Positions 15,138 to 30,140 of a stretch of 64,000 nucleotides of DNA are shown here, in pieces. The stretch is taken from assembly GCA_963618265.1 (NCBI GenBank), contig CAVESB010000004.1, positions 813-64,812 on the forward strand, given 5' to 3'. The stretch comes from a bacterium. Lineage in GTDB: Bacteria > Chloroflexota > Anaerolineae > Anaerolineales > Anaerolineaceae. The position numbers were made by a program, and so were the translations under genes. Within the stretch, counting starts at the first letter, position 1; the number at the start of each line of letters is the position of its first letter. The notes beneath the pieces were generated by a model that searched no databases, had not been told where the DNA came from, and was given only the letters and a program-made list of their open reading frames with translations.

Positions 15138-15641
15138 ATGGCTAACAAATACAAGGCTGTACGTTGCACCCGCGGGCGTGAATGGATCTTCCGCTGTTCC
15201 ACCGGGCAGGATGTTTATGATGCTTTCCAGCAGTTTGCGATCGACAACAAGATCGAGTTTGCGAAGATCGACACTGCTTTCATGGGCGGCTTCGAGCCTG
15301 CGCGTATGCTGGTTTGGTCTCCGGATTCAACCAACCCGGAAAACTGGCATCATGAAACCGCGATGGATGTCCAGAACCTGACCATGCTCCTGAGCATCGG
15401 CGGTTTCATCCATATCCGCAAGAATGACAAGGGCGAACGTGAACCGTTCCCGGCGATTCACTACATCGTCGGCGCTGCCTGGAACGCTCCGATCTGCGGC
15501 GGACACCTGATCCCCGGCACCATCGCGAAGGGCAACCTCGAATGTTTCATCACCGAAATTCTGGACATCGAAACCTTCCTGGATGATGATGTCAATGTCG
15601 GCGCTCCCGAGACCTGGTATTACAACACCAAAGGCGAATAA
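15138..15641 (+). CDS. PPC (DUF296) domain protein
   Basis: 167 aa from ATG 15138, with GGAGGA 7 nt upstream. PPC-like pattern: RGREWIF..GQDVYDAFQQFA..IEFAKI, then GGFI, IHYIVGAA, ICGGHL. Paralog at 37216-37779. Confidence 0.65.
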   Translation: MANKYKAVRCTRGREWIFRCSTGQDVYDAFQQFAIDNKIEFAKIDTAFMGGFEPARMLVWSPDSTNPENWHHETAMDVQNLTMLLSIGGFIHIRKNDKGEREPFPAIHYIVGAAWNAPICGGHLIPGTIAKGNLECFITEILDIETFLDDDVNVGAPETWYYNTKGE

Positions 15642-15682
15642 TCGGTAATCATTCGAGTGGACTCGGAGAGAGGTATTTCATA

Positions 15683-16069
15683 ATGGGTATTGAAAAGAAA
15701 GTGATCTTGGACGGCGGCGCGATGCCGTTCTCCAAGGTCATTCGTATGGGTAAAACAGTTTACGTTTCCGGCATGGTCGGACGGCGTGATGATGACGGCA
15801 CGATTCCCGCGACGGTTGCCGAACAGACCCGTGTGACCATGGATAAGATCGCCGGTCTGCTGCGCGCCGCGGACACCGAATGGAACAACGCGCTGAAGGT
15901 GACGATTTTCGTGACCGATATGCGTTATTTCGGCGAAGTCAACGAAGTCTACAAGACATACTTCGCCGCCGGTCAGATGCCCGCCCGCTCCTGCGTGGCG
16001 GTCTCTTCCCTGCCCGATCCCGACGCGAAAGTCGAGATTGAGCTGATCGCTGAGGTTCCGAATGCCTGA
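15683..16069 (+). CDS. ridA: RidA/YjgF-family reactive enamine/imine deaminase
   Basis: 128 aa. Typical family pattern (VYVSGMVG, VTIFVTDM, ARSCVAVSSLP, VEIELIA). Confidence 0.85.
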   Translation: MGIEKKVILDGGAMPFSKVIRMGKTVYVSGMVGRRDDDGTIPATVAEQTRVTMDKIAGLLRAADTEWNNALKVTIFVTDMRYFGEVNEVYKTYFAAGQMPARSCVAVSSLPDPDAKVEIELIAEVPNA

Positions 16070-16961
16070 AAACAAACGCCGTGTATTGATTCTTGACGCA
16101 TTCACCGACACGCCTTTCCTCGGAAACCCGTGCGGTGTAGTGCCCGATGCCAACGGCATGACCGATGAGGAAATGCAGAAGGTTGCCCGCGAACTGAACA
16201 CGCCCGAAACCAGCTTTGTCTCCAAATCCGATAAAGCCGACTTCCGCGTCCGCTATTTTACCCCGCATTATGAGATCGGTTTCGCCGGTCATCCGACCAT
16301 CGCGACCTCTTTCATGCTTGGGCTTGAAGGCATGACCGCTGTTGACAAACCCGTCAATACGATCTCTCTTGAGTTCAACATCGGCGTTTTGCCGGTGGAT
16401 ATCCGAAGCGAAAACGGCAAGCCGGCTTCCGCTGTGATGACCCAGGCTCTGCCGACTTACGGCGCTTCCGTTGAGCCGGAAGAAATGGCTGCCTGCTTCA
16501 AGAACTTCACCAAGGATGACTTCGCTGACGGAATTAAACCGCAGGTCGCCGGTACCGGTACCAATTTCCTCATGGTGCCGATCAAGTCCCTGGACAAGCT
16601 CGCCGCTATTGAGATGAATCGTGATAAGCTCTGTGAGATCGTCGACCGTGTCGGCGTGCAGGGCTCCTATGTGTTTGTGCCTTACGGCTTCGCTCCCGAG
16701 ACCGGCATGCATGCCCGCCTCTGCGATCCGCGCGGCACGCAGGAAGACCCCTTCACCGGTTCCGCTGCGGGCGCTGCCGGCTGTTTTATGCTCGATCACG
16801 GCATGACCGATAAAGAGGTCATCAACATCGAGCAGGGCAACTTCATCGGCCGTCCGGGCCATGGTACGCTTTATCTGAAGCGTGAAAACGGCAAAATCAC
16901 ATCCGTCCGCCTCGGCGGTTGCGCTGTGAAAGTCTCCGACGGCATGATGCAGTTGAGCTGA
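16062..16961 (+). CDS. PhzF-family isomerase/epimerase-like protein
   Basis: 299 aa. LDAFTDTPFLGNPCGVV, MQKVARELNTPETSFV, RYFTP. The start overlaps the ridA stop by 8 nt. Confidence 0.8.
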   Translation: MPENKRRVLILDAFTDTPFLGNPCGVVPDANGMTDEEMQKVARELNTPETSFVSKSDKADFRVRYFTPHYEIGFAGHPTIATSFMLGLEGMTAVDKPVNTISLEFNIGVLPVDIRSENGKPASAVMTQALPTYGASVEPEEMAACFKNFTKDDFADGIKPQVAGTGTNFLMVPIKSLDKLAAIEMNRDKLCEIVDRVGVQGSYVFVPYGFAPETGMHARLCDPRGTQEDPFTGSAAGAAGCFMLDHGMTDKEVINIEQGNFIGRPGHGTLYLKRENGKITSVRLGGCAVKVSDGMMQLS

Positions 16962-16978
16962 ATCAGACAGGAATACCA

Positions 16979-18142
16979 ATGAAACGCAAGAATCGTGTTG
17001 AGACACTGTTGAGCGAGAGCAAGAATTTTGACGCTTTTGTTGTCAAGTCTCCTGCCGATATCGCTTATTTGATCGGAATCGTCTTCCCGTATCCCGATCA
17101 GTCGCCTTTCTCTGCGGCACTCGTTGCCTGCAAGGGAAACAATAAATACACCCTGATCATTCCGGTGGAGTGGGAATGTGTGCTTCCCAACTTCACATGG
17201 AAGGGTCTGACCAGAACTTACAGCATCAATGACGGCGATCCGGACACCGCTTTCCGCGGCGCGCTGAAATCCGTTCTTGAGAGCATGGAACCGAACGGCA
17301 AGAATATCGGCATCGACTACTCCTCCTGGACGGTTGCCGAGATTCGTTTTCTCAAGGAAACCTTTGACGGCGCAGGTCTCGTCGATATCGACCCGGAACT
17401 GAGTGCCGCCCGTGAGATCAAGAGCGCGGAAGAGATCGTCAACATTAAATTGGCTTCCCACATCGCCGACCGCGGGATGATCGGTGCTCTGAACCATGTT
17501 GAAGGGACCATCGGCACCGCCGAGTATACCCGCGCTGAGTTTCTCGAACGCATCCGCGTTCATGCCATTGAGTTCGGCGCGAACTGCACCGGTCATCTGA
17601 ACCTTTCCGAAGGCCGTTCCGGACGCAGCTGGCTGACCCCAATCCGCGATCTCTCTTTCACCGAAGACGGACACACGATCCGTGCGGATTATTCCGTCTG
17701 CATGAACGGCTGCTGGACTGTCTGCTCCCGTATGTTCTTCACCGGCAAGCCGGATCAGGCCGCTGTTGATGCTTATGCCGACAACATGATGATCAAGAAT
17801 TTCGCGGTTGACATTCTGAAGCCGGGCATCCGTGTCTCCGAGTTCTGCGAAGCCGTCCGTCTGAAGGCTGAGGAAGAATGTATCGAGCTGATGCTGGATG
17901 AAGGTCTCGGTCACGGCGTTGGCATGTCGGAACATGAGAAGCCGTTCCTGACCGCCGATAACGATGAAGTTCTGAAGCCGAATATGGTGATTGCTTTGGA
18001 CATCAAGACGATCGGCTCTGTCAACGAAATGATTCACTCGATTGATATTTATCAGCTGACCCGGGACGGCAACGTCAAGCTCAGCGATTTCCGCGAGTGG
18101 AACACCATGTATCTGATCAACGGTATGCGTTCAACGCACTAA
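16979..18142 (+). CDS. M24 (pita-bread fold) Xaa-Pro peptidase/creatinase-like hydrolase, paralog 1
   Basis: 387 aa from ATG 16979. Creatinase_N-like N-terminus (FDAFVVKSPADIAYLIG). C-terminal GLGHGVGMSEHEKP motif is present, but the EPG/RIE positions are altered (VIALDIKT, HSIDIY). Confidence 0.75.
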   Translation: MKRKNRVETLLSESKNFDAFVVKSPADIAYLIGIVFPYPDQSPFSAALVACKGNNKYTLIIPVEWECVLPNFTWKGLTRTYSINDGDPDTAFRGALKSVLESMEPNGKNIGIDYSSWTVAEIRFLKETFDGAGLVDIDPELSAAREIKSAEEIVNIKLASHIADRGMIGALNHVEGTIGTAEYTRAEFLERIRVHAIEFGANCTGHLNLSEGRSGRSWLTPIRDLSFTEDGHTIRADYSVCMNGCWTVCSRMFFTGKPDQAAVDAYADNMMIKNFAVDILKPGIRVSEFCEAVRLKAEEECIELMLDEGLGHGVGMSEHEKPFLTADNDEVLKPNMVIALDIKTIGSVNEMIHSIDIYQLTRDGNVKLSDFREWNTMYLINGMRSTH

Positions 18143-18153
18143 GGCAGGGTAGT

Positions 18154-19335
18154 ATGTCTGCGAAAAACAACGTCACAAAAATCAGTAAATTTATCCAGTC
18201 CAATCTTGAGATTGACGGTATCGTGATCACCGACCCCGCGAACCTGGCCTACGCGACCGGGTTGAACTACGAAGGTCTTTACAGCATCACGAACCTGATC
18301 GTTATCGCTTTCTTCAGCGCAAGCAAGCGTTTCCTTGCCTGCCCGAAGATCATGGCCTCTGCCTATCAGAATGCCGGCTGGGATGACAGCATCATCACCT
18401 ATGATAACTGCTCCGACCCTGAATCGGCTGCGGCGGGCATTTCCTCCGCTTTCATCACCGAGCTTTTCGGCGGCAACAGAGCCACGATCGGCTTTCTCGG
18501 CGACCGTATGCACCAGTCTCTGTTTGAAAAACTGACTGCCCGCATCAAGAGCTGCGATTTTATTGACATCAGCGAATCTTTCGCCCGTCTGCGCCAGATC
18601 AAGTCTGCTTCCGAACGCCGCATTATCGAAAAGGCTGCCGCCCTTACCGATCACGGCATCGCCGGTGCTGTTCATCACGTCTCCCGCAACGGTGCGAAGA
18701 GCGAGAAGTTCCTGACGGAGGATATCCGCGTACATTGTCTGGAACGCGGGTTGCCCGTGAACGGCTACCGCGCTGTGGCGCAGGCTGTTTCGGAAGATCA
18801 TGCGACCATTCTTTGGCCGAATGCCCCGTACTATGCAGTCGGCCGCGACGGGAATTTCTTTGAAGGCAAGTTCATCCGTCTTGAAATGACCGGCATCCTC
18901 GACGGTTACTGGTCCAATGATTCCCGCATGATGGTCAAAGGCGATATGAACCCCAGCCAGAAGACCTTCGCCGAAAAGATGACCGCGCTGCGCAAGTATG
19001 CCTGCTCTATCATCAAACCGGGCGCCGTCTGCAAGGATATCTTCTATGCCATCAACAAAAAGGCTGTCGAGATGGGCATCGTTATGGCTCCTGAATTCGG
19101 TTACGGCGCCGGCATCGGTGTCTCCCCGGTTGAGCCTCCGTACATTTCCGCCGCAGATGAAACCGTGATTGAGAAGAACATGATGATCGTTCTCTCTCTG
19201 GGCGCTCGTTATACCGCGGGCGGCGGTGAGCTTTACATCACCAGGGATACGCTGCGGATCACGGACAACGGCTGTGAAATTCTCGGCTGGTATGAGAATT
19301 GGGATTATCCGTACACCGCGGCTTACACCTTCTAA
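18154..19335 (+). CDS. M24-fold creatinase/prolidase-like protein, paralog 2 (metal-ligand motifs not recognisable)
   Basis: 393 aa from ATG 18154. Same domain layout, but the HxGH..HE.P region reads GYGAGIGVSPVEPP and the EPG position reads LSLGA. Confidence 0.7.
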   Translation: MSAKNNVTKISKFIQSNLEIDGIVITDPANLAYATGLNYEGLYSITNLIVIAFFSASKRFLACPKIMASAYQNAGWDDSIITYDNCSDPESAAAGISSAFITELFGGNRATIGFLGDRMHQSLFEKLTARIKSCDFIDISESFARLRQIKSASERRIIEKAAALTDHGIAGAVHHVSRNGAKSEKFLTEDIRVHCLERGLPVNGYRAVAQAVSEDHATILWPNAPYYAVGRDGNFFEGKFIRLEMTGILDGYWSNDSRMMVKGDMNPSQKTFAEKMTALRKYACSIIKPGAVCKDIFYAINKKAVEMGIVMAPEFGYGAGIGVSPVEPPYISAADETVIEKNMMIVLSLGARYTAGGGELYITRDTLRITDNGCEILGWYENWDYPYTAAYTF

Positions 19336-19386
19336 AGATTTGCTGCAGGGAGTATTTCCCTGTAAAAAAGAAAAGGAGAAAGATTG

Positions 19387-20967
19387 ATGAAGAATTCTAA
19401 ACTGTTCCTCCTCGTGCTTGTGTTGGTTGCTGTATTGTGCGCGAGTGTTGTCGTCTCCGCCGCTGATGACCGGGCTTCTACCCTTGTCATCGCCGCGGAT
19501 TCCGATCCCGCCGGCATTGACCCCGCCTATGATAAGGCTTACCCGGTCGGATGCGAAATCATCATCAACGTTTTTGACACCCTGGTTGCCTGGCAGGCTC
19601 CGGATTATACCGAACTCGAAGGACGTTTGGCTGAGTCCTGGAACATTTCCGAAGATGGCAAGACCTACACCTTCAACATCCGACAGGGCGTAAAATTCCA
19701 TGACGGTACCGACGTGAACGCCGAAGCTGTCATGGCAGCTCTCGAACGCACCAAGACGGAGTCCTCCTATATGCAGAAGAACTTCGGCTACATTGAAAGC
19801 ATGAACGTTCTTGATGAGTACACCCTTGAGATCAACCTGACCGAAGCTATCTCCGTCTTCCTCTCCTGGCTTGCCATGCCTGAGGCTTCCATCGTCAGCC
19901 CGGCCGCTGTCGAGACCCTGGGCGAAGATTTCTCCACGCATCCGGTCGGCTCCGGCCCGTTCATCTTTGAATCTTATGTCCCGGATACCGAAGTTGTCCT
20001 GAAGGCGAACCATGACTACTGGCGCGGCGCTCCGCAGATCGAAACCATCGTCTACCGCATCATCCCGGACGCCTCCACCCGCCGTCTCGAACTGGAAGCA
20101 GGCAATGTTGACCTGAGCCAGCAGAACGGTCAGATTTCTTCCCTGCCTGTTGAGGATATCAAGGCCTTTGAATCCAACCCGGACATCGAAGTCATCTCCG
20201 TCCCGTCCCAGATCGTCCGCGAACTGGCTTTCAACAACAACAGTGAAACCTCCCCGGTTGCCACCAACAAGAAGCTGCGCGAAGCCATGGCCCACGCGGT
20301 TGATTACGACGGCGTTGTTGAATATATCCTCGGCGGAACCGCTTCCCGCGTTTACGGTCCGATCACCTCGAACAGCTGGGCTTTCAACGAAGACATTCTG
20401 GAAGATTCCCCGTACACCTACGATCCGGAACTTGCCAAGCAGCTGCTTTCCGAAGCCGGATACGAACCGGGCGAACTGAACTTCAATATCTACACCTTCC
20501 AAGGTACCCTCTGGGGCAATGTTGCAACCTACCTGCAGGAATGTTTCGCTGAAATCGGCATCAACACCGAAGTTGTCCAGATGGAATTCCCTCCGCTGCG
20601 CGACATCATTGTCTCCGGTGATTTCGATATCTATCTCGGCGGACGTCAGCCCTGGTACAACGATCCCGAAGCGCATATCACGATCGACTATCTCTCCACC
20701 CTGGCCAACACTGCGATGACCATGCGTATGCCCGAGAACGCCGAGCTTGATCAGCTGATCCTCGATGCCCAGAAGGCTTCCTCTCAGGAAGAACGCATTG
20801 AGCTCTACGGTGAGATTCAGGAAGAGATCGTTGACGAGATCCCCGCGCTGTATCTGTTCTCCAACAACGTGATTGTCTTCAAACGCGCTGAAGTCAAGGG
20901 ACTGGTCGTCAACAGCGCTCCTCCGCTCAATGAATACTGGTCCGTCAACAAAGAAGCCGGCAACTGA
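19387..20967 (+). CDS. secreted family-5 ABC substrate-binding protein (peptide/opine/nickel class)
   Basis: 526 aa from ATG 19387, with AGGAGA 8 nt upstream. Signal peptide MKNSKLFLLVLVLVAVLCASVVVSA-ADD, followed by SBP_bac_5 motifs. Confidence 0.85.
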   Translation: MKNSKLFLLVLVLVAVLCASVVVSAADDRASTLVIAADSDPAGIDPAYDKAYPVGCEIIINVFDTLVAWQAPDYTELEGRLAESWNISEDGKTYTFNIRQGVKFHDGTDVNAEAVMAALERTKTESSYMQKNFGYIESMNVLDEYTLEINLTEAISVFLSWLAMPEASIVSPAAVETLGEDFSTHPVGSGPFIFESYVPDTEVVLKANHDYWRGAPQIETIVYRIIPDASTRRLELEAGNVDLSQQNGQISSLPVEDIKAFESNPDIEVISVPSQIVRELAFNNNSETSPVATNKKLREAMAHAVDYDGVVEYILGGTASRVYGPITSNSWAFNEDILEDSPYTYDPELAKQLLSEAGYEPGELNFNIYTFQGTLWGNVATYLQECFAEIGINTEVVQMEFPPLRDIIVSGDFDIYLGGRQPWYNDPEAHITIDYLSTLANTAMTMRMPENAELDQLILDAQKASSQEERIELYGEIQEEIVDEIPALYLFSNNVIVFKRAEVKGLVVNSAPPLNEYWSVNKEAGN

Positions 20968-21000
20968 TTTGTAGTCGTGAAACTCTCTTGAGAGTACCGG

Positions 21001-21037
21001 CCGCAGGGACTGGAACTCCCCGTCCCTGCGGTTTTTT
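21001..21037 (+). terminator. hairpin + T-tract after the SBP gene (attenuating terminator)
   Basis: CCGCAGGGAC-N11-GTCCCTGCGG followed by TTTTTT. Confidence 0.7.
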
Positions 21038-21070
21038 CTAAAGTGATTCAGAATTGAAAAGAGGACAAAT

Positions 21071-22072
21071 ATGATAAAGTTTGCCGGAAGGCGTTTGTTA
21101 TCAAGTTTGCCGGCTTTGATCCTGGTTTTGCTGCTCGTCTTCTCCCTTGTGAGAATGATCCCCGGCGATCCGGCAGTCGCGCTGCTGGGCGCGGGCGCCA
21201 CCGATGAGCAGATTGAGTTCTTACGTGAACAGCTGAACCTCAATCAGCCGTTCCTTCAGCAGCTGGGTACCTATCTGGTTGATATTCTTCACGGCGATCT
21301 CGGCGACTCTATGCGCACGAAGCAGCCGGTCATGCAGGAACTTCTCAACCGTCTGCCCGCAACCCTTGAATTGTCAATTTTCGCGGCGATCATCGCTGTT
21401 CTCATCGGCGTACCGCTTGGTATTCTCTCAGCGAAGAAACCGAACAGCTTCATTGATCATTTCACCCGCGTTTTTTCACTGATCGGCGTTTCCGCCCCGG
21501 CTTTTTGGCTGGCGTTGATTCTTCAGCTGATTTTCTCCCTGTCCTTGGGCTGGTTCCCTGTCTCCGGGCGTCTTGACGCGACCATCCGCAGCGCGGATGC
21601 GGGTAATTTCGTAATATTCGGCAACCTCTTCAACGGTCATCTTGATTATGCGTGGTCGGGTATTAAGCACATTATTCTGCCCGCTTTTGTACTTGCGGCT
21701 TTTTACGGAGCAGTGATCGCCCGCTTCCTGCGCACCAGCATGATCGAGGTGATCCATTCCGACTATATCCGCACTGCCAAGGGCAAGGGCGTCAAAAAAG
21801 GCATTATCCTGCGCTCGCATGAGCTGCGGAACGCATTGCTTCCTGTCGTCACCATTATGGGGTTGAAATTCGCGGAAATGCTCAGCGGTTCCATTCTGAC
21901 CGAAACCGTTTTCTCCTGGCCGGGCATCGGCCGCTACATGCGTGACGCGATTTCCAACCGTGACTACCCTGTGGTTCAGGGTGCTGTCTTGATGTTCGCG
22001 CTGATCTATATGATTTCTTCCTTCATCGTTGATATCATCTACGGTCTGCTGGATCCCCGCATCCGCATGTAA
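21071..22072 (+). CDS. Opp/Dpp-type ABC permease (DppB/OppB-like)
   Basis: 333 aa, multi-TM. Signature SDYIRTAKGKGVKKGIILRSHELRNALLPVVT. Confidence 0.9.
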   Translation: MIKFAGRRLLSSLPALILVLLLVFSLVRMIPGDPAVALLGAGATDEQIEFLREQLNLNQPFLQQLGTYLVDILHGDLGDSMRTKQPVMQELLNRLPATLELSIFAAIIAVLIGVPLGILSAKKPNSFIDHFTRVFSLIGVSAPAFWLALILQLIFSLSLGWFPVSGRLDATIRSADAGNFVIFGNLFNGHLDYAWSGIKHIILPAFVLAAFYGAVIARFLRTSMIEVIHSDYIRTAKGKGVKKGIILRSHELRNALLPVVTIMGLKFAEMLSGSILTETVFSWPGIGRYMRDAISNRDYPVVQGAVLMFALIYMISSFIVDIIYGLLDPRIRM

Positions 22073-22089
22073 ACGGAAAGGAAAACCCA

Positions 22090-22980
22090 ATGCCATATAT
22101 TGAGCCCAAAGAACAAAACATCAAAAGCGGCAAACATGAAACTTGGGATAACCTCGTTTACTTCCTCAAGAAGAATCCGCTGGCTGTCCTCGGCATCGTT
22201 CTGCTGTTTATCATCATTCTCGCCTGTCTTTGCGCACCTTTGCTGACGGACTACTCCCCGACCAAGACATCCCTGCGCGAACAGCTCTCCGCGCCGAGTT
22301 CGAAACACCTCTTCGGCACGGATCAACTCGGACGCGATATCTTCGCGCGTATCCTTTACGGCGGACGGAACACGATTTTCATCGGCTTTGTTGTGATCGT
22401 GATCGCCTTCATTGTGGGTGTCGCGATCGGTATTTTCTCCGGCTTTATGGGCGGATGGATCGATAATGTCATCATGCGCGTGATCGATGCTGTGCTGTCC
22501 TTCCCGACACTGGTGCTTGCAATCGCGCTTTCCGCCGTGCTCGGTCCGAACCTGAAGAATGCGATGATCGCCGTGATCATCACCATGATCCCGCAGTTCG
22601 CGCGCATTTCCCGCGGCCTCGCGCTGAACGTTCGTGAGCTGCTCTTCATTGAATCCGCCGAAGCCCTCGGCGCCTCCACCAGGGATATCCTTTGGACGCA
22701 TGTTCTTCCCAATTGTCTGAGTTCGCTTTTCGTCCAGGCTTCCCTGAACTTTGGCTCCGCCATTCTGCAGACCGCCAGCCTCGGCTTCCTCGGTTTGGGC
22801 GCTCAGCCGCCTACGCCGGAATGGGGTGTGGATGTCTCCGCCGCCTCCGCGTACATCCGCGAATCCCCCTGGGTGGCGCTTTATCCGGGCTTCGCCATTC
22901 TGCTTACCGTATTGTCTTTCAATCTGGTCGGTGACGCGTTATCCGACTGGAACAACCCCCGCGCGAGAAAGAATAACTGA
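22090..22980 (+). CDS. Opp/Dpp-type ABC permease (DppC/OppC-like)
   Basis: 296 aa. LFGTDQLGRDIFARI and ESAEALGASTRDILWTHVLPN motifs. Confidence 0.9.
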   Translation: MPYIEPKEQNIKSGKHETWDNLVYFLKKNPLAVLGIVLLFIIILACLCAPLLTDYSPTKTSLREQLSAPSSKHLFGTDQLGRDIFARILYGGRNTIFIGFVVIVIAFIVGVAIGIFSGFMGGWIDNVIMRVIDAVLSFPTLVLAIALSAVLGPNLKNAMIAVIITMIPQFARISRGLALNVRELLFIESAEALGASTRDILWTHVLPNCLSSLFVQASLNFGSAILQTASLGFLGLGAQPPTPEWGVDVSAASAYIRESPWVALYPGFAILLTVLSFNLVGDALSDWNNPRARKNN

Positions 22981-22987
22981 TTTGGCC

Positions 22988-24388
22988 ATGAAAAATATAC
23001 GTGTCGCATTGGAAAAATGCCGTATGATGCCGCTCGGTCAGACAACCGACGGTTGGGATGTGCTGACTGTTCAAAACCTGATTTACGAACCGCTTGTCCG
23101 CGCCCGCTGCGGGCAGATGAATCCCGCGCTTGCGAAGGGTTGGATGGTATCCGACGACGGCTGCCGCTGGGTTTTCTACCTGCGTGACGATGCGAAGTTC
23201 TCCGACGGCAGCGATTGCAGCATGGAAGACGTGCGCCGTTCTTTCGAGGAAATGCGCAATGCGAAGGATTCCTTCGGTATGCCCGGCCCGTTCTCCCGCT
23301 ATCTCGCCGGTTTGGAATTCAGGGTTCTCAATGCGAAGACCCTTGAAATCACTTCTGAGAAGCCGAACGGCGATGTCGCTGACTTCCTCTCCGAAATTTT
23401 CATCCGCAAGACGGTTGCCGGGAAAGAACACTCGATCGGTACCGGATCCTATGAACTCGAGGAATTCATCCCGAATCAGAAGATCGCTCTGCGCAAAGTT
23501 GCGGGGAAGGATATTCCCGAAGCCTATGACCGCATTGATGTTCTCATCGTCCCCGATGCGAATCAGCGTTGGAACATGCTGAAGAAGGCTGAAGTTGATA
23601 TCGCGATGGATCTTGATCAGCTTGAGACGGTTCCGTTTGACGATCCCGCTGTTACCTTCCGCAAGGCGGTCAACACACTTTCCGTCATGGGTTTTTTGAA
23701 CGGATATGAAAAACCTTTCAACGATCCGAAGGCGCGGCTGGCGTTGAACTACGCCGTCAACGCAGAGCGGATAATTGAAAAGGTCCGGAAGGGTCTTGCT
23801 GTTCCTTCCGCTACCATCGTCAGCCCGTACCACTGCGGTTTCTATTCCTCCATCAAGCCGATTCCGTACGATCCCGAAAAAGCGAAGTCCCTTTTCGCCG
23901 AATGTGATATGCCGGAAACGATTGTTCTGCGCACCCCGACTTACATGCCGGAACGCGCACCCCTCGTCGCGGAATGTATCGCCGAAGACCTGCGCGCTAT
24001 CGGCATCAAGGTCGAAGTCGAAGTCAGGACCGACCGTCCCGAATACGCCCGCGAAGTCGGACGCAAAGAGACCGGGCACATCGCCATCTTCGATTCCTCC
24101 CCGCACAGTTCATACCGTGTCCTTTCCGACAAGATCAGCGGACGCGGCGGCGGCATCTGGTGGCAGGGTATCGGCATTGACGAAGTTGATGACATGATCG
24201 ACGAAGCGCACGCGACTTCCGATGTCACCATGCGCCAGTTTGCGTATTCAAAGCCGCTGCATTACCTGAACGAACATCCGTACTGGATTTACCTCTATCA
24301 TCCGATGCTGGTCTGCGGCTGTGCGGATCCTGCGATTGATGTTGAGATCACGCATGAAGGACTGCTGCACTTCCCGGGTACTTGGTAA
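22988..24388 (+). CDS. family-5 solute-binding-protein homolog without signal peptide (predicted cytoplasmic), in-operon copy
   Basis: 466 aa from ATG 22988. The track extension back to 22751 lies inside the permease gene in another frame. N-terminus MKNIRVALEKCRMMPLGQ has no leader. Shares DGCRW.FY, GTGSY, VSPYHCG, PIPYDP, W.YLYHP and FPG.W with 11899-13299. Confidence 0.7.
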   Translation: MKNIRVALEKCRMMPLGQTTDGWDVLTVQNLIYEPLVRARCGQMNPALAKGWMVSDDGCRWVFYLRDDAKFSDGSDCSMEDVRRSFEEMRNAKDSFGMPGPFSRYLAGLEFRVLNAKTLEITSEKPNGDVADFLSEIFIRKTVAGKEHSIGTGSYELEEFIPNQKIALRKVAGKDIPEAYDRIDVLIVPDANQRWNMLKKAEVDIAMDLDQLETVPFDDPAVTFRKAVNTLSVMGFLNGYEKPFNDPKARLALNYAVNAERIIEKVRKGLAVPSATIVSPYHCGFYSSIKPIPYDPEKAKSLFAECDMPETIVLRTPTYMPERAPLVAECIAEDLRAIGIKVEVEVRTDRPEYAREVGRKETGHIAIFDSSPHSSYRVLSDKISGRGGGIWWQGIGIDEVDDMIDEAHATSDVTMRQFAYSKPLHYLNEHPYWIYLYHPMLVCGCADPAIDVEITHEGLLHFPGTW

Positions 24389-24422
24389 ACCGAACTACAA
24401 CCTGAAATAAGGAGTAAACACA

Positions 24423-24803
24423 ATGAAATTACAGTCTCAGATCACTTTCTTCTATTACAAGAACCTTGAGGAAGCCGCCCGCTTCTATGAAGATATTTTC
24501 CACCTTGAAATCATCCAAGACCAGTCTATGGCGAAGGTCTACAAACTTGGCAAGTCCTATTTCGGCATCGTTGACGGCGTTAAAGGCAGCCTGAAGGCGC
24601 AGGATTACAACGCCGCCATGCTCACCATTCTGGTTGATTCTGTTGAGGAGTGGTGCGCTTATCTTGATGAAAAGGGCGTGAAATGCCGCAAACCCTGCAG
24701 CTGCGGCAAGTTCGCGAAGTCCGCTTTTTATGAAGATCCCGGCGGTTATGTCATCGAGATCCAGCATTTCATGAATGAAGAAGTTCATAAGGAATTTGAA
24801 TAG
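24423..24803 (+). CDS. VOC (glyoxalase/bleomycin-resistance fold) family protein
   Basis: 126 aa. ITFFYYKNLEEAARFYEDIFHLE..., DPGGYVIEIQ. Roughly 50% identical by eye to 36815-37195. Both are 126 aa and end in KEFE. Confidence 0.7.
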   Translation: MKLQSQITFFYYKNLEEAARFYEDIFHLEIIQDQSMAKVYKLGKSYFGIVDGVKGSLKAQDYNAAMLTILVDSVEEWCAYLDEKGVKCRKPCSCGKFAKSAFYEDPGGYVIEIQHFMNEEVHKEFE

Positions 24804-26836
24804 TGAACAGCGCTTTTGAAAATATCAAGAAAGAATTTGAAGCCGATACCGCGTCGGGTTATATTCCGCTTTTGGTGACTTACACCAGGGAAGATGCTGA
24901 GATCAACGGTCTGCGTAAGGCCAAAAAGACCGACACCGTCGACCGTGAAGCGGAATATTTCAGCGCCGTTGAGGCGCTCGGGCGCAGCAAGCGCGCCATG
25001 TTCCTCGGTGAAAAGGGGATGGGGAAGAGCACCTTCCTGAAGATGCTCGCCCTCTGCATGGCTGGCGAACAGTGCGGCGATATGAAATATACCCTTGCCA
25101 AACTGACCGAACCCGTCAGCCGCACGAATTCCTGCAAAGCTCCCGAAGCGCAGGAATGGACAGCCGGTGTCTTGGACACGATCTGGGTTAATCTCGCCGA
25201 ATATCCCGAAGGCAACCTTCCCGCAGAAATTCGCGACGCACAGCTGATTTTGCTGGACGGCGTTGAATACGCTACCGCCAACGGCTGGCAGTCCATCAAA
25301 AACGAGCTTGATGAAGTCATCGCCGCGAACCCGGATGTGTATATCGCCGCCGCGTGCGAAGCCAATGTGATCAACCGTTTGCGCCCGCGTCTGCAGGGCT
25401 TTACGAATTACACCATCAATTCTCTGATCAATCCGCAAAAGAAGCAGATCGCCGAGAACTGCGGACAGACCGGTATTGCGATCCCTGAAGCATTGCAGAG
25501 CGTCCTCTGCAAGACCCAGGATTATATCCTGTGGATGCAGAACGGCAGAACGGCGGAAACCCCGTCCGACTACTTCAAGTCCATCTGCCGCGTTGATGCC
25601 GCGTATGCCGAAAAGGCAGCTTTTGATCTGCTGGTCGGCGATGTGAACATGGCTCATATTGCCTCCATGATTCGGGCGTTCAGTCACTGTGACAGCCTGA
25701 TCAAGTATCTCGCCTGCCGCTACTGCCTGAACAACAATTTCAGCGAAAACTTCGGCGTGCTCATTGACAACCTGCATTATGAAAGCTGGTCGGCTCTCAA
25801 TATGCTGAAGCTCATCATCAACGAGAACGATCCGGAGCCGTACATTGAGCATATTATTTCTCTCTGCCCGGATAGCGAACCGAATGAGGAAAACGCGCTG
25901 AAGGCACTCTTCTCCGCTGAACTTGCCTTCGGAATCCGTGAGCGCGTTGAGAACAACAGCGCGTATATTGCCGGGCTGAAAAAATGGATGAAAGCCATTG
26001 TCTGCAATGCATGGCTCTCTGTCTATGACCGCATTGAGGCCGGCAAGCGCCTTTCCTGGCTCGGTGATGACCGCGAACTTGACGCGCTGGTTGAGATCCC
26101 GGCGGGTGAGTTCACGATGGGCGATTACCTGATCGCGAATAACCAACCTGTTGAGAAGATCCACGTCGATGCCTTCAAGCTCAGCGAGTATCCCGTCACG
26201 AACGCCCGCTATGCCGAATTCATCGCCGAGACCGCTGCACCCTGGCTTTCCAACGAGGGCGATAACATTGAACGCCGCAGCTATCCCGCCATCAACCTGA
26301 CCTGGTACGAAGCCGTCAAATTCTGCGATTGGCTGACCGAAAAATGGCGTAAAGCCGGGCGTATTGCCGAAAATGAATTTGTCCGCCTGCCGACAGAAGC
26401 CGAATGGGAATACGCCGCACGCGGCAAACGCATCTCCGAACCGGGAAAGATGATCTTCCCCTGGGGCAATGAATGGGTTGATGATGCCGCCAACACCGCC
26501 GAACTCGGGCTCAATGACACCTGCCCGGTCGGTCTGTTCCCCGGCAATGTCAGCGACTTCGGTATACGCGACATGATCGGCATGGTTTGGGAGTGGAACA
26601 CTACGAACTGGGGCAATGACCCGAAGCATCCGGCTTTCCCGTATCCGTACAACGCGGAAGACGGTCGTGAAAACAGCCGCCATGCCGCCGACGATGTTCG
26701 CCGTGTAATGCGCGGCGGTTCATTCGGCAGTACCGCGGATCACGCGACGGCTTCCTATCGCGGTCACTTGGAGCCGATCGGCTTCTGGCGCGGCGACGGT
26801 TTCCGCGTTGCCGTTTCCGAGAAATCTCATGACTGA
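24803..26836 (+). CDS. STAND (NACHT-like) P-loop NTPase fused to a non-catalytic FGE-sulfatase (SUMF1-fold) domain
   Basis: 677 aa. Walker A GEKGMGKST and Walker B-like LILLDGVEY. The C-terminal roughly 235 aa carry VTNARYAEF, NLTWYEAVKFCDWL, LPTEAEWEYAARG, WEW, RGGSF and GFRV. No Cys pair follows RGGS. GTG start overlaps the VOC stop (TAGTG). The stop overlaps the next start (ATGA). Confidence 0.75.
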   Translation: MNSAFENIKKEFEADTASGYIPLLVTYTREDAEINGLRKAKKTDTVDREAEYFSAVEALGRSKRAMFLGEKGMGKSTFLKMLALCMAGEQCGDMKYTLAKLTEPVSRTNSCKAPEAQEWTAGVLDTIWVNLAEYPEGNLPAEIRDAQLILLDGVEYATANGWQSIKNELDEVIAANPDVYIAAACEANVINRLRPRLQGFTNYTINSLINPQKKQIAENCGQTGIAIPEALQSVLCKTQDYILWMQNGRTAETPSDYFKSICRVDAAYAEKAAFDLLVGDVNMAHIASMIRAFSHCDSLIKYLACRYCLNNNFSENFGVLIDNLHYESWSALNMLKLIINENDPEPYIEHIISLCPDSEPNEENALKALFSAELAFGIRERVENNSAYIAGLKKWMKAIVCNAWLSVYDRIEAGKRLSWLGDDRELDALVEIPAGEFTMGDYLIANNQPVEKIHVDAFKLSEYPVTNARYAEFIAETAAPWLSNEGDNIERRSYPAINLTWYEAVKFCDWLTEKWRKAGRIAENEFVRLPTEAEWEYAARGKRISEPGKMIFPWGNEWVDDAANTAELGLNDTCPVGLFPGNVSDFGIRDMIGMVWEWNTTNWGNDPKHPAFPYPYNAEDGRENSRHAADDVRRVMRGGSFGSTADHATASYRGHLEPIGFWRGDGFRVAVSEKSHD

Positions 26837-28055
26837 AACGCGTAAACATTCACGCAATCCGTTCTTCGAGAACTGCCCGGATCGACGCCATAACGCCGAA
26901 AGCAATAAATGGCACCGCATCCCCGAAGGATATCTGCCGCTGAGTATCGCAGATATGGACTGTATGTCACCGCTCGAAGTGCGTGATGCCTTGAGCAGGC
27001 GTGTCGAGCATAATGTCTTCGGTTACGGCAGACCGCTCCCTGAACTGCACGCGTTGATTTGCGATCACATGGGGAAGAAGTATAATTGGCAGATTTCCGA
27101 GGACAGCATCCGCTGGTCCGCGGGAGTCATTATGGGCTTCAATCAGGTCCTTGACGGTCTGGCGGAGTCCGATGACGGGATCGTCCTGCAAACCCCGAAT
27201 TATCCTCCTATTCTGGAAACGCCGGGATTCCGTCATCTGCCGATGACTTCTTCCCCGTTGGTGAAGGACGCGAGCGGGCGTTATGAGATCGACTTCGACC
27301 TTTTTGAGAAGTCGATCACCCCGCGGACGAAGTTCTTCCTTTTCAGCAATCCGCAGAACCCGACGGGGCGCGTGTTTACCCGTGAAGAGTTGGAAAAGAT
27401 CGCGGAAATCTGCCTGCGTCATCACCTCTGGATTCTCTCCGACGAGATTCATCAGGATATGATTTTCAGCGGACATCATCATATTCCGATTGCTTCGCTG
27501 GATAAAGAAGTCGAGAACATCACCGCGACATTCACTGCGGCAAGCAAAACCTATAATATCGCCGGGCTGAAATGCTCCTACGCTGTCATTCCCAACCCGG
27601 TGCTGCGCGGTGCGTTCGACCGCGGCGGCGCGGGACTGGTTGACAGTCTCAACGTGTTGGGACTGACCGCCCTGGACGCGGCTTACCGTTACGGGGACCG
27701 GTGGCTGGCTGATGTCATGACTTATCTGGAAGAGAACCGCGATTATGTTGCCGATGAAGTCGCGTCCATTGACGGGATGAGCATGTATAAACCGGAAGGT
27801 ACCTACCTCGCCTGGATCAACTGCGAAGGGCTGAACCTCGGCTGCTCCCCGTACAGGTTCTTCTATGACAACGCCCATATCGTGTTCAACGAAGGCAGCA
27901 CTTTCGGAGACGGCTGCGGGAATTACATCCGTATGAATTTCGGCACCTCGTTTGAGAGACTGCAGAAGGCTTTCGCCGATATGCGCGTCGCGCTGGATAA
28001 GCGCAATACATCGGGGGACTGCTGTCCTTCCCGTACACCGAAAGGACTTTTGTGA
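26829..28055 (+). CDS. PLP-dependent C-S beta-lyase, MalY/PatB family
   Basis: 408 aa from ATG 26829. NAESNKWHRIPEGYLPLSIADMDCMSP, SDEIHQDM and the Schiff-base motif AASKTYNIAGLK. Confidence 0.8.
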   Translation: MTETRKHSRNPFFENCPDRRHNAESNKWHRIPEGYLPLSIADMDCMSPLEVRDALSRRVEHNVFGYGRPLPELHALICDHMGKKYNWQISEDSIRWSAGVIMGFNQVLDGLAESDDGIVLQTPNYPPILETPGFRHLPMTSSPLVKDASGRYEIDFDLFEKSITPRTKFFLFSNPQNPTGRVFTREELEKIAEICLRHHLWILSDEIHQDMIFSGHHHIPIASLDKEVENITATFTAASKTYNIAGLKCSYAVIPNPVLRGAFDRGGAGLVDSLNVLGLTALDAAYRYGDRWLADVMTYLEENRDYVADEVASIDGMSMYKPEGTYLAWINCEGLNLGCSPYRFFYDNAHIVFNEGSTFGDGCGNYIRMNFGTSFERLQKAFADMRVALDKRNTSGDCCPSRTPKGLL

Positions 28056-29044
28056 TGACAAAAATTCTTGAAGTCAATAATCTGAAAACCGAGTTCAAAA
28101 CCAAGGACGGCATTGTTCACGCCGTGAACGGTGTTTCCTTCTCGCTGGATGAACGGGAGACGCTCGGCGTTGTGGGCGAATCCGGCTGCGGCAAGAGCGT
28201 CTCGATCATGTCCATGCTGCGCCTGATTGACTGCCCGCCGGGGAAAATCGTTGCCGGTGAGGTCATGTACAACGGTCAGGATCTGCTGAAATTGAAAGAA
28301 GAAGAACTCCGCCGCATCCGCGGCAACGACATTTCCGTCGTTTTTCAGGATCCGATGACCTTCTTCAACCCCGTGATGACTATCGGCGACCAGGTCGCCG
28401 AGACCTATCTGATGCATCATAAAGCCTCAAAGAAGGAAGCCCTTGAACGAGCACAGAAGTATCTTGAGCTGGTGGGCATTCCGCACGCCAAACAACGTCT
28501 TAAGAGCTACCCGCATGAGTTCTCCGGCGGTATGCGCCAGCGCGCCATGATCGCCATGGCTCTCATCAGCGAGCCGAAAATCCTGATCGCCGATGAGCCG
28601 ACAACCGCACTGGACGTTACGATTCAGGCGCAGATCGTCGAGCTGGTGAAGAAGCTGCGTGACGAGATCGGCATGTCCATCATTTGGATTACGCATGACC
28701 TCGGACTTATCGCCGGTCTTGCGGATCGCATCAACGTGATGTACGGCGGTTTGATCATCGAGACGGCGCCCGTGAAGAGCCTTTACAGCAATCCGCGGCA
28801 TCCGTACACGATCGGGCTGCTGGGTTCCCTGCCCCGCATGAACGAGAAGTCTTATTACCGCCTGACCTCCATTGACGGGATTCCGCCCGTGCTGATGACC
28901 GAGCCGGATTACTGTCCCTTCGTCAACCGCTGCAAATTCGCCGTGGAAAAGTGTAAGAACCAACGTCCGTCCCTGCAGCCGATTGATGACAACGGTCATC
29001 TCTGCGCCTGCTGGATTGATCCCGAAACCGGAAAGGAGCGTTGA
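28052..29044 (+). CDS. Opp/Dpp-type ABC ATPase (DppD/OppD-like)
   Basis: Walker A GESGCGKS, signature SGGMRQR, Walker [11 protein letters not shown]-terminal oligopeptide-type extension. Start is GTG 28052 or ATG 28055. Both overlap the lyase stop (GTGATGA). Confidence 0.9.
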
Positions 29045-29050
29045 TCGCAT

Positions 29051-30040
29051 ATGGAAAATAAAGAAGTTCTTCTGAGCGTTCAGGATCTGAAAAAGTATTT
29101 TCCCATCAAAGACGGCATCATTTTCTCACGTACCGTGGGGAATGTCCACGCTGTGGACGGCTTGACCTTTGACATTTATAAAGGTGAGACTTTGGGACTT
29201 GTCGGCGAGTCCGGCTGCGGCAAGTCCACAACGGGACGCACCATTCTGCAGCTGCAGCGTGCAACCTCCGGCAAAGTGCTCTTCAACGGACAGGATTTGA
29301 CACAGCTCACAGGGAATGACCTGCGGGCGATTCGCAAGGATTTGCAGATCATCTTCCAGGATCCTTACGCAAGCCTTGACCCGCGTATGTCCGTTGCGCA
29401 GCTGATTGGTGAACCCATGCGCATCCACAAAATCAACAGCGGTGAGGCGCGTACACAGCGGGTCAAGGAGCTGATGGAGCTCGTCGGGCTGAATCCTGCC
29501 TTCATCAACCGCTTCCCGCACGAGTTCTCCGGCGGTCAGCGTCAGCGTATCGGCATTGCCCGCGCTCTGGCACTGCAGCCGAAGATGATCGTCTGCGATG
29601 AGCCGATCTCCGCGCTGGATGTCTCCGTGCAGGCGCAGGTTGTCAACCTGCTTGAGGATCTTCAGTCTCAGATGGGACTGACCTATCTCTTCATTGCGCA
29701 TGACCTTTCCATGGTGCGCCACATCTCCAACCGCATCGGCGTGATGTACCTCGGCGTGATCGTTGAGCTTGCCGAGCGCAATGAGCTGTATGACGAGCCG
29801 CTGCATCCCTATACCCAGGCACTGCTTTCCGCCGTGCCGTATCCGGATCCCTTCGTGGAAGAATCCCGTCAGCGCATCATTCTTGAAGGCGATGTTCCCT
29901 CGCCGATCAACCCGCCCTCCGGCTGCCGTTTCCGCACACGCTGCCGATTCGCAAAAGATATCTGCGCGAAAGAGCGTCCGGAATTCAAAGAGTACAAACC
30001 CGGTCATTTTGCCGCCTGCCATTTCGCCGGGCAGCAGTAA
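29051..30040 (+). CDS. Opp/Dpp-type ABC ATPase (DppF/OppF-like)
   Basis: Walker [30 protein letters not shown]-terminal [10 protein letters not shown] motif. Confidence 0.9.
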
Positions 30041-30084: not shown

Positions 30085-30140
30085 TGAAATACGGGTTTTA
30101 CACAGCAAAAATGTGTAACAGCCGCAGCGTGAAACGGTCA

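Follow-up and report, generated by a model that had tools for sequence, protein, structure and literature searches.

Organization of the operon

The window, that is, the whole 64,000-nucleotide (nt) stretch of contig CAVESB010000004.1 (Anaerolineaceae assembly GCA_963618265.1) that was analyzed, bears at 15138-30040 an operon in which the genes for an ATP-binding cassette (ABC) importer of the Opp/Dpp type are accompanied by genes for cytoplasmic proteins and enzymes. All positions are those of the window. Gene layout was established by listing and translation of open reading frames (ORFs), and domains were assigned with Pfam and NCBIfam. Six of the genes constitute an invariant core with a fixed order: a secreted substrate-binding protein (SBP) of the SBP_bac_5 family (SBP5), permease B, permease C, a cytoplasmic SBP5 that lacks a leader peptide, a small vicinal oxygen chelate (VOC) fold protein, and a signal transduction ATPase with numerous domains (STAND) of the NACHT type whose nucleoside triphosphatase (NTPase) is fused to a domain resembling the formylglycine-generating enzyme (FGE). 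The last three are referred to here as the trio and the fusion protein as NTPase-FGE.

Table 1. Genes and other features of the operon and its surroundings in the window.
Feature	Position	Strand	Basis of assignment
PCC/DUF296 protein, 167 amino acids	15138-15641	+	Pfam PCC 29.2 bits vs. cut-off 25 (weak)
RidA-family enamine/imine deaminase	15683-16069	+	Pfam Ribonuc_L-PSP 113.9 bits
PhzF-family isomerase/epimerase-like protein	16062-16961	+	Pfam PhzC-PhzF 202.8 bits; TIGR00654 222 vs. cut-off 76
M24a, creatinase/prolidase fold	16979-18142	+	Pfam Creatinase_N and Peptidase_M24
M24b, creatinase/prolidase fold	18154-19335	+	Pfam Creatinase_N and Peptidase_M24
Secreted SBP5, signal peptide	19384/19387-20967	+	Pfam SBP_bac_5 (PF00496) 303.8 bits
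Permease B (DppB/Opp2B-like)	21071-22072	+	Pfam BPD_transp_1 and BPD_transp_1_N
Permease C (DppC/DdpC-like)	22090-22980	+	Pfam OppC_N and BPD_transp_1
Leaderless SBP5, trio gene 1	22988-24388	+	Pfam SBP_bac_5 204.6 bits
Small VOC/glyoxalase-fold protein, trio gene 2	24423-24803	+	Pfam Glyoxalase 38.6 bits
NACHT-type STAND NTPase (residues 1-420) fused to FGE-sulfatase-like domain (residues 425-672), trio gene 3	24803-26836	+	Pfam NACHT 29.7 vs. cut-off 26.7; FGE-sulfatase (PF03781) 142.4 bits
PatB/MalY-family C-S lyase dependent on pyridoxal 5′-phosphate (PLP)	26829-28055	+	TIGR04350 349.8 vs. cut-off 340
ATPase D (OppD/DppD-like)	28052-29044	+	Pfam ABC_tran and oligo_HPY
ATPase F (OppF/DppF-like)	29051-30040	+	Pfam ABC_tran and oligo_HPY
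MocR-type regulator, GntR helix-turn-helix (HTH) and class I/II aminotransferase-like domain	13314-14750	-	Pfam GntR and Aminotran_1_2
Further leaderless SBP5 paralog, 466 amino acids	11899-13299	+	Pfam SBP_bac_5 152.7 bits
Asp/Glu/hydantoin-racemase-family protein	32775-33503	+	Pfam Asp_Glu_race 182.6 bits
Hairpin after the secreted SBP gene, followed by U6; partial terminator or stabilizer	20999-21039	+	Free energy -27.8 kcal/mol, z -4.6
Intrinsic terminator-like hairpin followed by TTTTGTG	30052-30086	+	Free energy -32.1 kcal/mol, z -6.0
Candidate operator, direct repeat CTGTTAT ... CTGTTAT	15015-15052	+	Invariant blocks in intergenic alignment

The 14 co-directional ORFs are joined by short or overlapping junctions. 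The coordinates of this tightly packed array match those of an initial annotation made without database searches, whose domain calls all hold in Pfam and NCBIfam; the PCC match is weak, and RidA falls just under the TIGR00004 cut-off (101.3 vs. 106.25 bits) while being clear in Pfam. Genes overlap at the RidA/PhzF (8 nt), VOC/NTPase-FGE (1 nt) and lyase/ATPase D (4 nt) junctions. The NTPase-FGE and lyase genes overlap by 8 nt provided that the lyase starts at the ATG at 26829, a start implied by the gene call in a relative with 92% identity (L001). A GGAGG motif is located 8 nt 5′ of the PCC/DUF296 start. Spacers of at least ~50 nt are confined to 19336-19383/6 and 20968-21070, the two larger gaps recognized initially, and the second harbors the hairpin that had been noted there: none of 200 shuffled sequences gave as stable a fold. 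The same was true of the 12-bp G+C-rich hairpin at 30052-30080 after the last gene, where a strong terminator had been placed. Both hairpins were missed by a simple terminator scanner because of its loop and T-run rules. Base composition shows no break across the operon region, and all 14 genes are under purifying selection in comparison with the 92%-identity relative (ratio of nonsynonymous to synonymous substitution rates, dN/dS, 0.02-0.11). Overall, these data support the earlier view of one operon-like unit for uptake and cytoplasmic breakdown.

A six-gene core with fixed order and variable partners

Relatives of the operon were located by tblastn searches of plasmids, by exact-protein look-ups and by a metagenome scan anchored on the leaderless SBP5, which contributed 80 further loci. 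Within the clade of the window, the order of the 14 genes is identical in relatives at 92% (L001), 60% (L005/L006) and 45% (L101) identity. A further relative at 51% identity (L099; GCA_040767845.1) retains all genes through the lyase and has no ATPase genes at the locus, and so its transporter must either borrow ATPases encoded elsewhere or be inactive. In that locus only a 60-residue ORF lies between the lyase and IorA genes (12096-13999). Outside the clade, the order SBP5, permease B, permease C, leaderless SBP5, VOC (~127 amino acids) and NTPase-FGE (590-720 amino acids) is found in Agrobacterium rosae, Terrarubrum flagellatum and Alloyangia pacifica, and also in Allorhizobium pseudoryzae, Rhizobium sp. 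BG6, a record labelled Pseudomonas putida and a metagenome-assembled genome (MAG) labelled Gordonia. These taxon labels are those of the source records themselves, which name Alpha- and Gammaproteobacteria and Actinobacteria, and the MAG labels may be wrong. The window proteins are 54-56% (secreted SBP), 55-58% (permease B), 53-58% (permease C) and 42-49% (ATPase D) identical to those of the proteobacterial modules. Identities for the trio in the same set of records are 39-42% (leaderless SBP5), 39-48% (VOC) and 34-35% (NTPase-FGE). An unrelated Opp system (L007) shares only 28-36% identity with the SBP and permeases of the window, compared to 53-58% for the module, and the latter is therefore a single orthologous unit.

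A permease C gene is present in 46 of the metagenome loci; in each of them the leaderless SBP5 gene comes directly after it, at a median distance of 21 nt. Where at least 2.7 kb of downstream sequence was available (n = 46), the VOC gene came next in 29 loci, and VOC together with NTPase-FGE in 26. The ATPase genes are placed upstream and divergent (16-20 metagenome loci), downstream and convergent (8-9), upstream and co-directional (1), or downstream and co-directional after PatB, as in the window (1; L171). In none of the 46 loci does an ATPase gene stand straight after the second permease gene, i.e., no contiguous ABCDF arrangement occurs. Ancestrally the trio forms one unit with the SBP and permeases, and it is the ATPase genes that move; the importer looks split in the window because its ATPase genes are situated after the lyase gene. 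The initial annotation had instead described a canonical importer divided by a four-gene cassette, a view that must be abandoned since three of the four genes, together with those for the SBP and permeases, make up a unit that is ancient and shared between phyla. A contiguous oppABCDF in close relatives, with the cassette elsewhere or absent, had been set out initially as the sign of a recent neutral insertion, and was found in none of them. In the unrelated system of L007 (ENA ERZ27280797, 694-9774), genes for a GFO/IDH/MocA oxidoreductase, a 2-hydroxyacid dehydrogenase and an M20 peptidase lie between the permease and ATPase genes of an Opp-type operon and a leaderless SBP5 gene follows; non-contiguous opp operons are therefore not rare.

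The genes that accompany the core were tallied in 37 metagenome core loci. The commonest partner is a rhodanese (30 loci), followed by the ATPases (28-29), a PatB-family lyase (19), a GntR-FCD regulator (18), a cyclic amidohydrolase resembling ErtD (16), an Asp/Glu/hydantoin-racemase-family protein (15), a dihydrodipicolinate synthase (DHDPS)-family protein (11) and a short-chain dehydrogenase/reductase (SDR; 5). Unbiased clustering of ORFs from 47 loci added TonB-dependent receptors alone, in six loci, the other recurrent clusters being antisense artefacts. In its full form in Rhizobiaceae, the locus consists of PatB, SDR, DHDPS, amidohydrolase and racemase genes in one orientation, a GntR gene in the other, a fused ATPase gene again in the first orientation, and then rhodanese, SBP, permease B, permease C, leaderless SBP5, VOC and NTPase-FGE genes, all directed as the GntR gene. 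The rhodanese has no signal peptide, bears a CGAGMS active-site loop and matches 3-mercaptopyruvate sulfurtransferase best in NCBIfam. The sulfur theme of the initial annotation is strengthened by this comparison, in which rhodanese and PatB genes attend 30 and 19 of the 37 core loci, respectively, and ErtD-like and racemase-family genes recur.

The proteobacterial amidohydrolase scores 503 bits (E 7e-151) against the NCBIfam model for ErtD, the hydantoin-5-propionate amidohydrolase of ergothioneine utilization, for which the cut-off is 600, and 255 bits against allantoinase. The proteobacterial loci resemble ergothioneine (ErtA-E)/hydantoin utilization clusters in that the ErtD-like gene is beside a racemase-family gene, and the window retains the latter. 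However, the loci examined contain neither ergothionase nor thiourocanate hydratase, two M24 proteins of the window take the place of the amidohydrolase, and no window protein has an Ert match in NCBIfam. Ergothioneine catabolism was rejected as an assignment, as the ErtD-like paralog alone is present and is under the cut-off. The known ergothioneine transporter EgtU belongs to another transporter family (PMC12922746).

The racemase-family gene of the window is outside the operon, after IorAB, a position that is kept in L001, L005 and L099. It has no NCBIfam equivalog. Homologs with 29-36% identity adjoin the module in A. rosae, Terrarubrum, Allorhizobium, Rhizobium BG6 and L103 as well as in the 15 metagenome core loci. 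The clade of the window retains the PatB lyase along with this gene and adds the two M24 proteins, PhzF, RidA and PCC. Two bioreactor loci (L106 and L182) also combine the core with the M24 pair and PCC, in an arrangement unlike that of the window. The PCC/DUF296 protein has no NCBIfam match, and its gene follows that for PatB in L182.

In the locus labelled P. putida (L102), genes for an extracytoplasmic function (ECF) sigma factor, a FecR-like protein and a TonB-dependent receptor flank the module (2320-6356 and 17518-19977). A second TonB receptor gene is located there between the PatB and rhodanese genes, and nearby genes encode NMT1/SsuA-like binding proteins and a luciferase-like monooxygenase, as is typical of clusters that scavenge sulfur.

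Properties of the encoded proteins

The importer has the composition of the PepT (Opp/Dpp-type) family, namely a secreted SBP_bac_5 protein, OppB-like and OppC-like BPD_transp_1 permeases and two oligo_HPY ATPases. The N-terminus of the secreted SBP, MMKNSKLFLLVLVLVAVLCASVVVSAADD, reads as a signal peptide. In E. coli DppABCDF and GsiABCD the same components are found, with OppC_N in the permeases; however, permease C of the module is always followed by the genes for cytoplasmic SBP5, VOC and NACHT-FGE instead of those for ATPases, and the SBP lacks D408 and R355. These two residues anchor the dipeptide termini in DppA, and their equivalents in the secreted SBP are W424 and T, respectively. 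The nearest solved structures to this protein are those of DppA, GsiB/YliB and HbpA. It is below every NCBIfam equivalog cut-off, including that for DppA (176 vs. 1005 bits). Scores against nickel and opine-metallophore models also are below their cut-offs (NikA, 199 vs. 393; CntA, 169 vs. 800; Opp2B, 333 vs. 350; Opp2C, 293 vs. 300), and those of the permeases against Opp2B and Opp2C are near misses that provide a lead and do not exclude metal chelates. The term Opp/Dpp-type states a family and not a substrate.

The first trio protein was called leaderless in the initial annotation. Residue n of this protein aligns to residue n of mature DppA and NikA, and it therefore genuinely lacks a leader. 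Its family comprises 563 clusters at E ≤ 1e-10, the best 120 of which are all 453-490 amino acids in length. Regulators of the SgrR type use a cytoplasmic SBP_bac_5 domain as a sensor, and the SBP5 proteins of the window match the SgrR model of NCBIfam weakly. The leaderless SBP5 shares the intracellular SBP5 fold with SgrR but is a stand-alone protein of ~460 amino acids without an HTH, and its gene is coupled to that for permease C. In metagenome loci L143, L144 and L168 the leaderless SBP5 gene is convergent with an NTPase-FGE gene and no transporter genes were detected nearby; the protein in L144 has 681 amino acids with nSTAND3/AAA_16/NACHT and FGE-sulfatase matches. In L154, L157, L160 and L166 a rhodanese gene followed by the leaderless SBP5 gene was present alone, again with no transporter genes detected nearby. 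Pfam gave no match for hand-picked ORFs of L166, a high-GC locus in which these ORFs are probably on the wrong strand.

The VOC protein is among the most conserved products of the module, with dN/dS of 0.019 compared to 0.058 for the leaderless SBP5 when measured against the 92%-identity relative. In all 40 non-redundant orthologs the canonical metal positions are occupied by T8, D51, T68 and E112 in place of the H/E/H/E-type ligands of glyoxalase I, and the score against TIGR00068 is 34.8 (cut-off 120). Most orthologs have H56, H78, C98 and H100, where the window protein has S, C, A and S, respectively.

The NTPase-FGE protein has 97 invariant columns across 11 orthologs, including Walker A residues G72, G74 and K75 and Walker B residue D152. 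Approximately 75 of these columns, C508 and C574 among them, fall in the FGE-like domain. An AlphaFold2 model of residues 1-424 (pLDDT 89, pTM 0.86) matched the NACHT modules of NLRP3 and NLRP9 best, with TM-scores of 0.45-0.50 and modest E-values (~1e-4), and was less like clamp-loader AAA+ proteins. This agrees with the STAND/NACHT family, in which a P-loop NTPase bearing the Walker A and B motifs precedes helical and winged-helix arms. No effector domain was found in the protein, in which ~60 conserved residues precede Walker A, and PADLOC returned no defense family match, the scores being ≤ 19 bits and at the P-loop level only. The combination of a NACHT/STAND module with a C-terminal FGE-sulfatase domain has been termed antigen receptor-type in bacterial defense proteins (bioRxiv 10.1101/2022.07.19.500537; PMC13581612). 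The window protein shares this layout with bNACHT/Avs-type receptors, but lacks an effector or PADLOC match, has a conserved FGE-like domain and is fixed syntenically in an importer operon. Homolog searches with a profile of the N-terminal half gave 30 matches, and a full-length word-indexed query gave 13 that were dominated by FGE candidates. As phmmer with the N-terminal half detects the proteobacterial orthologs over residues 17-130 only, such a search cannot size the family. One full-length homolog (P0185; 726 amino acids, 97% query coverage, 24% identity) is recorded as a C-type lectin protein of Penicillium taxi on a 4.1-Mb contig, which is either a transfer into the fungus or contamination.

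The FGE-like domain is closest to ToxD, FGE, EgtB and OvsA, and was matched by Foldseek to human and bacterial FGE with a probability of 1.00. Identity as a true FGE was rejected: the catalytic, copper-binding cysteine pair of human FGE, C336-x4-C341, has no counterpart, since the window protein has RGGSFGSTADHATASYRG without Cys and other orthologs have C-x9-CC with a different spacing. Identity as EgtB, OvoA or SenA also was rejected, the N-terminal DinB-like domain with the iron ligands being replaced by the NACHT NTPase; scores are far below the cut-offs for EgtB (72 vs. 360), SenA (73 vs. 420) and OvoA (54 vs. 400). In almost all orthologs of the proteobacterial type, the FGE-like domain contains RGGCFSS..KACC[TS]YRG and the VOC protein GHL/WH/C[ED]H. 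The clade of the window has Ser, Ala or other residues at all of these Cys and His sites, and its trio nevertheless is under strong purifying selection (dN/dS 0.02-0.10). This lineage may have moved away from chemistry that depends on metal or oxygen; it is read as anaerobic because the genes next to the operon include IorAB and an ADP-forming acyl-CoA synthetase.

MalT of E. coli is a STAND activator that is controlled by MalK, an ABC ATPase, and by MalY, a C-S lyase of the PatB/MalY family. Both the maltose system and the window bring a STAND NTPase together with an ABC importer and a lyase of the MalY family in one functional neighborhood, and here the lyase gene overlaps the STAND gene. 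In contrast to MalT, the window protein has no DNA-binding domain and possesses an FGE-like domain and not a SUPR sensor, and the lyase gene is not adjacent in most other lineages. MalT is a functional precedent for a non-immune, metabolite-sensing STAND protein, and not a homolog in domain content.

Among the enzymes, neither M24 protein retains the five dinuclear-metal ligands (D, D, H, E, E) of prolidases, although the fold is present, and the canonical prolidase pair was rejected as an identity. The five positions read D, V, H, D and I in M24a when aligned with prolidase 5cdl, and E, D, A, S and R in M24b when aligned with prolidase 1pv9 (D209, D220, H284, E313 and E327). M24b matches ectoine hydrolase and creatinase weakly, and the pair is more like creatinase- or ectoine-hydrolase-type members of the family than like peptidases. 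The two proteins are 26% identical and probably form a heterodimer, a suggestion based on the adjacency of the genes and their divergence in sequence. The putative lyase belongs to the PatB/MalY family by its TIGR04350 score and by retention of the PLP lysine. The SKT motif with this lysine aligns to structure 3t32, with PatB (6qp3) and a Cys-S-conjugate beta-lyase (9k71) next. The PatB/MalY/cystalysin and RidA pairing is matched by the RidA gene in the operon; however, the window lyase is no closer to module-linked proteobacterial PatB proteins (37%) than to generic ones.

The MocR-type regulator had been placed divergent from the operon in the initial annotation, as is borne out by a gene on the minus strand with a GntR-type HTH fused to a fold-type I aminotransferase-like domain. 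Its position is kept in L001, L005 and L099, and its best NCBIfam match is PdxR-like (295 bits, under the 320 cut-off). The 387-nt intergenic region (14751-15137) contains CTGTTAT at 15015 and 15046, 31 nt apart from start to start. In an alignment of this region from the window, L001, L005 and L099, across which protein identity extends down to ~51-60%, these repeats are the sole invariant blocks, and they are a candidate MocR operator. Two further pairs of direct repeats, each with 21-nt spacing, are located at 14886-14924 (AAATGACA-containing 18-mers) and 14785-14816 (GGCAAAAC[A/T]GT); the latter pair adjoins the MocR start and is largely retained in L001. A comparison with Rfam revealed neither a riboswitch nor any other known RNA in the window, the 387-nt leader included.

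The further leaderless SBP5 paralog, which was overlooked in the initial annotation as was the racemase-family gene, is 38% identical over its full length to the paralog within the operon. Its gene is convergent with the MocR gene and is likewise upstream of MocR in L005, and its nearest relatives elsewhere come after a different Opp operon (L007). On the 3′ side of the operon, 30385-36815 encodes IorA, IorB, the racemase-family protein, a class I/II aminotransferase and an ADP-forming acyl-CoA synthetase, positions that are kept in L001, L005 and L099. These genes resemble a unit for aryl-pyruvate fermentation, of which the racemase-family gene alone is shared with the proteobacterial versions of the module. 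A 1034-residue ORF on the minus strand (18139-21243) is antisense to the M24b and SBP genes, and comparably long ORFs are opposite most operon genes; these presumably do not code for protein and result from codon and base composition.

Proposed uptake and breakdown of an organosulfur compound

The operon is probably one lineage's version of a widespread, uncharacterized locus for the uptake and breakdown of an organosulfur amino compound, a reading that we favor with moderate confidence. The initial annotation had proposed a peptide-like, probably sulfur-containing amino compound as substrate with a cyclic amide as an alternative. The latter remains plausible, whereas the peptide-like element is weakened by the loss of the DppA anchors from the secreted SBP and of the full dinuclear metal site from both M24 proteins. 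The substrate is probably a non-canonical sulfur-bearing amino compound, likely cyclic and other than a plain dipeptide, potentially with a cyclic amide, ureide or thiazolidine-like element.

We infer the following order of steps, and any role of the trio within it. The secreted SBP would capture a non-canonical ligand other than a plain alpha-dipeptide, which the ABC transporter would import. The cytoplasmic SBP5 paralog would receive or sense the imported ligand, and might work with VOC and the nucleotide-switched NACHT/FGE-like protein to process, deliver or gate it. A racemase-like or PhzF-like isomerase could then equilibrate a stereocenter before a ring- or amide-opening hydrolase acts, the M24 pair potentially fulfilling this function here and the ErtD-like hydantoinase doing so in Proteobacteria. 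The PatB lyase would cut the C-S bond to yield a thiol or persulfide, pyruvate and ammonia. It is established enzymology that lyases of this type release 2-aminoacrylate and that RidA quenches it, and RidA would do so here. In aerobes the rhodanese resembling 3-mercaptopyruvate sulfurtransferase might handle the sulfur. The genes would be induced by MocR, or by GntR-FCD in Proteobacteria.

The FGE fold recognizes cysteine thiols in FGE, EgtB and OvoA. The most economical idea for the trio is that the internal SBP5 would bind the compound and the FGE-like domain engage it, with the NACHT module as a nucleotide-dependent switch. More tentatively, the trio may extend an ABC importer into the cytoplasm in a novel way, with an NLR-like STAND protein that serves nutrient handling and not immunity: the internal SBP would accept the sulfur compound from the transporter and present it to the FGE-like domain, thereby triggering a nucleotide-dependent switch or oligomer that processes or channels the compound or gates transport. 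If the trio is such an extension, the anaerobic clade, with its correlated loss of Cys from the FGE-like domain and of His and Cys from VOC, would have exchanged oxidative or metal chemistry for pure binding or scaffolding.

Several observations weigh against the organosulfur reading. The clade of the window has neither the rhodanese nor the ErtD-like gene, and M24, PhzF and RidA can only be conjectured to be the equivalents of the hydantoinase, racemase and DHDPS proteins. The lyase is 37% identical to the PatB protein of the Alloyangia module and about as near to unrelated solved PatB/C-S lyases; being no closer than generic enzymes, the lyases may therefore be independent recruitments and not orthologs. 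Cys and His residues that are conserved in other FGE-like and VOC orthologs are replaced in this clade, where the chemistry that they support elsewhere may not occur. Approximately one-third of leaderless SBP5 homologs are outside this context. No homolog in any of these loci has been characterized, and literature searches gave no description of the gene set. Finally, the SBP and permeases score highest against nickel/opine-metallophore models and TonB receptors occur in six loci, so that a metal chelate would also fit.

Import of such a chelate is a serious alternative, albeit one that we consider improbable. The metallophore would carry nickel, cobalt or copper and might be based on a thiol or thioamide; the trio would be an intracellular device for metal release or metallochaperoning, and the lyase and rhodanese would recycle the sulfur ligand. 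In its favor are the best NCBIfam scores, which are to NikA, the nickel-type Opp2B/C and the opine-metallophore CntA/C, and the ECF sigma/FecR/TonB set and second TonB receptor of the Pseudomonas-labelled locus. The VOC and FGE folds moreover are classic metal binders, most orthologs keep C-x9-CC in the FGE-like domain and His/Cys in VOC, and P-loop NTPases often drive metal delivery. However, all of the nickel and opine scores are under their cut-offs, the regulators are of metabolite type (MocR and GntR-FCD) and not NikR, Fur or Zur, and the recurrent partners are catabolic (hydantoinase-, racemase- and DHDPS-like proteins, SDR and PatB). The NTPase is NACHT-like and not a G3E metallochaperone GTPase, and the clade of the window lacks the putative Cys/His ligands even though its trio is under strong purifying selection. 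Biosynthesis or salvage of a thiohistidine such as ergothioneine or ovothiol is markedly less likely. The FGE-like domain would then be a C-S-forming enzyme of the EgtB/OvoA type, PatB the counterpart of EgtE/OvoB and the rhodanese that of EanB. Matches of the domain to EgtB, SenA and OvoA models and to EgtB and OvsA structures agree with this, as do the overlap of the lyase and NTPase-FGE genes, the prevalence of the rhodanese and the frequency of an ErtD-like hydrolase from the ergothioneine pathway. Nevertheless, the EgtB and SenA scores are far below their cut-offs, the NACHT NTPase stands where the DinB domain and its iron ligands should be, there is no methyltransferase, the secreted SBP and importer dominate the locus and ErtD is catabolic. 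Oxygen-dependent sulfoxide synthases also are ill-suited to an apparently anaerobic organism.

The probability is slighter still that the NACHT-FGE protein, with or without its two neighbors, is an anti-phage or conflict STAND receptor lodged in a transporter operon. The literature places NACHT/STAND NTPases that carry FGE-sulfatase (FGS) domains among the antigen-receptor-type sensors of bacterial defense (bioRxiv 10.1101/2022.07.19.500537; PMC13581612), and more distant relatives of the protein (P0130-P0133) carry TIR-like or SIR2 effectors. The window protein instead is devoid of an effector and of PADLOC matches above the P-loop level. The fixed gene order and translational coupling with transporter genes in more than 40 loci of several phyla are unlike defense islands, and the extreme conservation of the FGE-like domain is at odds with the diversification of antigen-receptor sensors. 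Least probable of all is that a mobile cassette of four genes, functionally unrelated or only loosely linked to the transporter, recently interrupted a canonical opp/dpp operon with contiguous ABCDF genes; this is refuted by synteny. Four genes do sit between those for permease C and ATPase D in the window, and the Opp-type operon of L007 demonstrates that enzyme genes do become inserted at this point. Yet a contiguous arrangement occurs in no relative, the leaderless SBP5 gene follows that for permease C without exception, in several phyla the trio accompanies SBP and permease genes that are orthologous, and it is the ATPase genes that vary in position. The cassette genes moreover are under purifying selection (dN/dS 0.02-0.10) without a break in base composition.

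Full-text literature searches revealed no account of this gene set. The organosulfur locus favored here is a substrate-specific ABC uptake and catabolic locus of known type, with an accessory trio that has no described counterpart in the literature searched. Proteins that combine NACHT/STAND and FGE-like domains currently are read as immune receptors, and here such a protein is locked into a nutrient importer operon in records of several phyla together with an intracellular SBP. The results also call for correction of the labels "SUMF1/EgtB/PvdO family nonheme iron enzyme" and "ABC transporter substrate-binding protein" that these proteins bear, and non-contiguous opp operons should not be treated as disrupted. 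Culturable carriers exist in Agrobacterium, Allorhizobium, Rhizobium, Alloyangia and Terrarubrum, which makes the question directly testable. If the trio works with the transporter, it would be the second well-defined case, after MalT, of a STAND protein that serves metabolism, would reveal a new role for cytoplasmic proteins of the SBP fold, and would point to an unrecognized scavenging route for an organosulfur compound that is evidently met by soil, freshwater, marine and digester bacteria.

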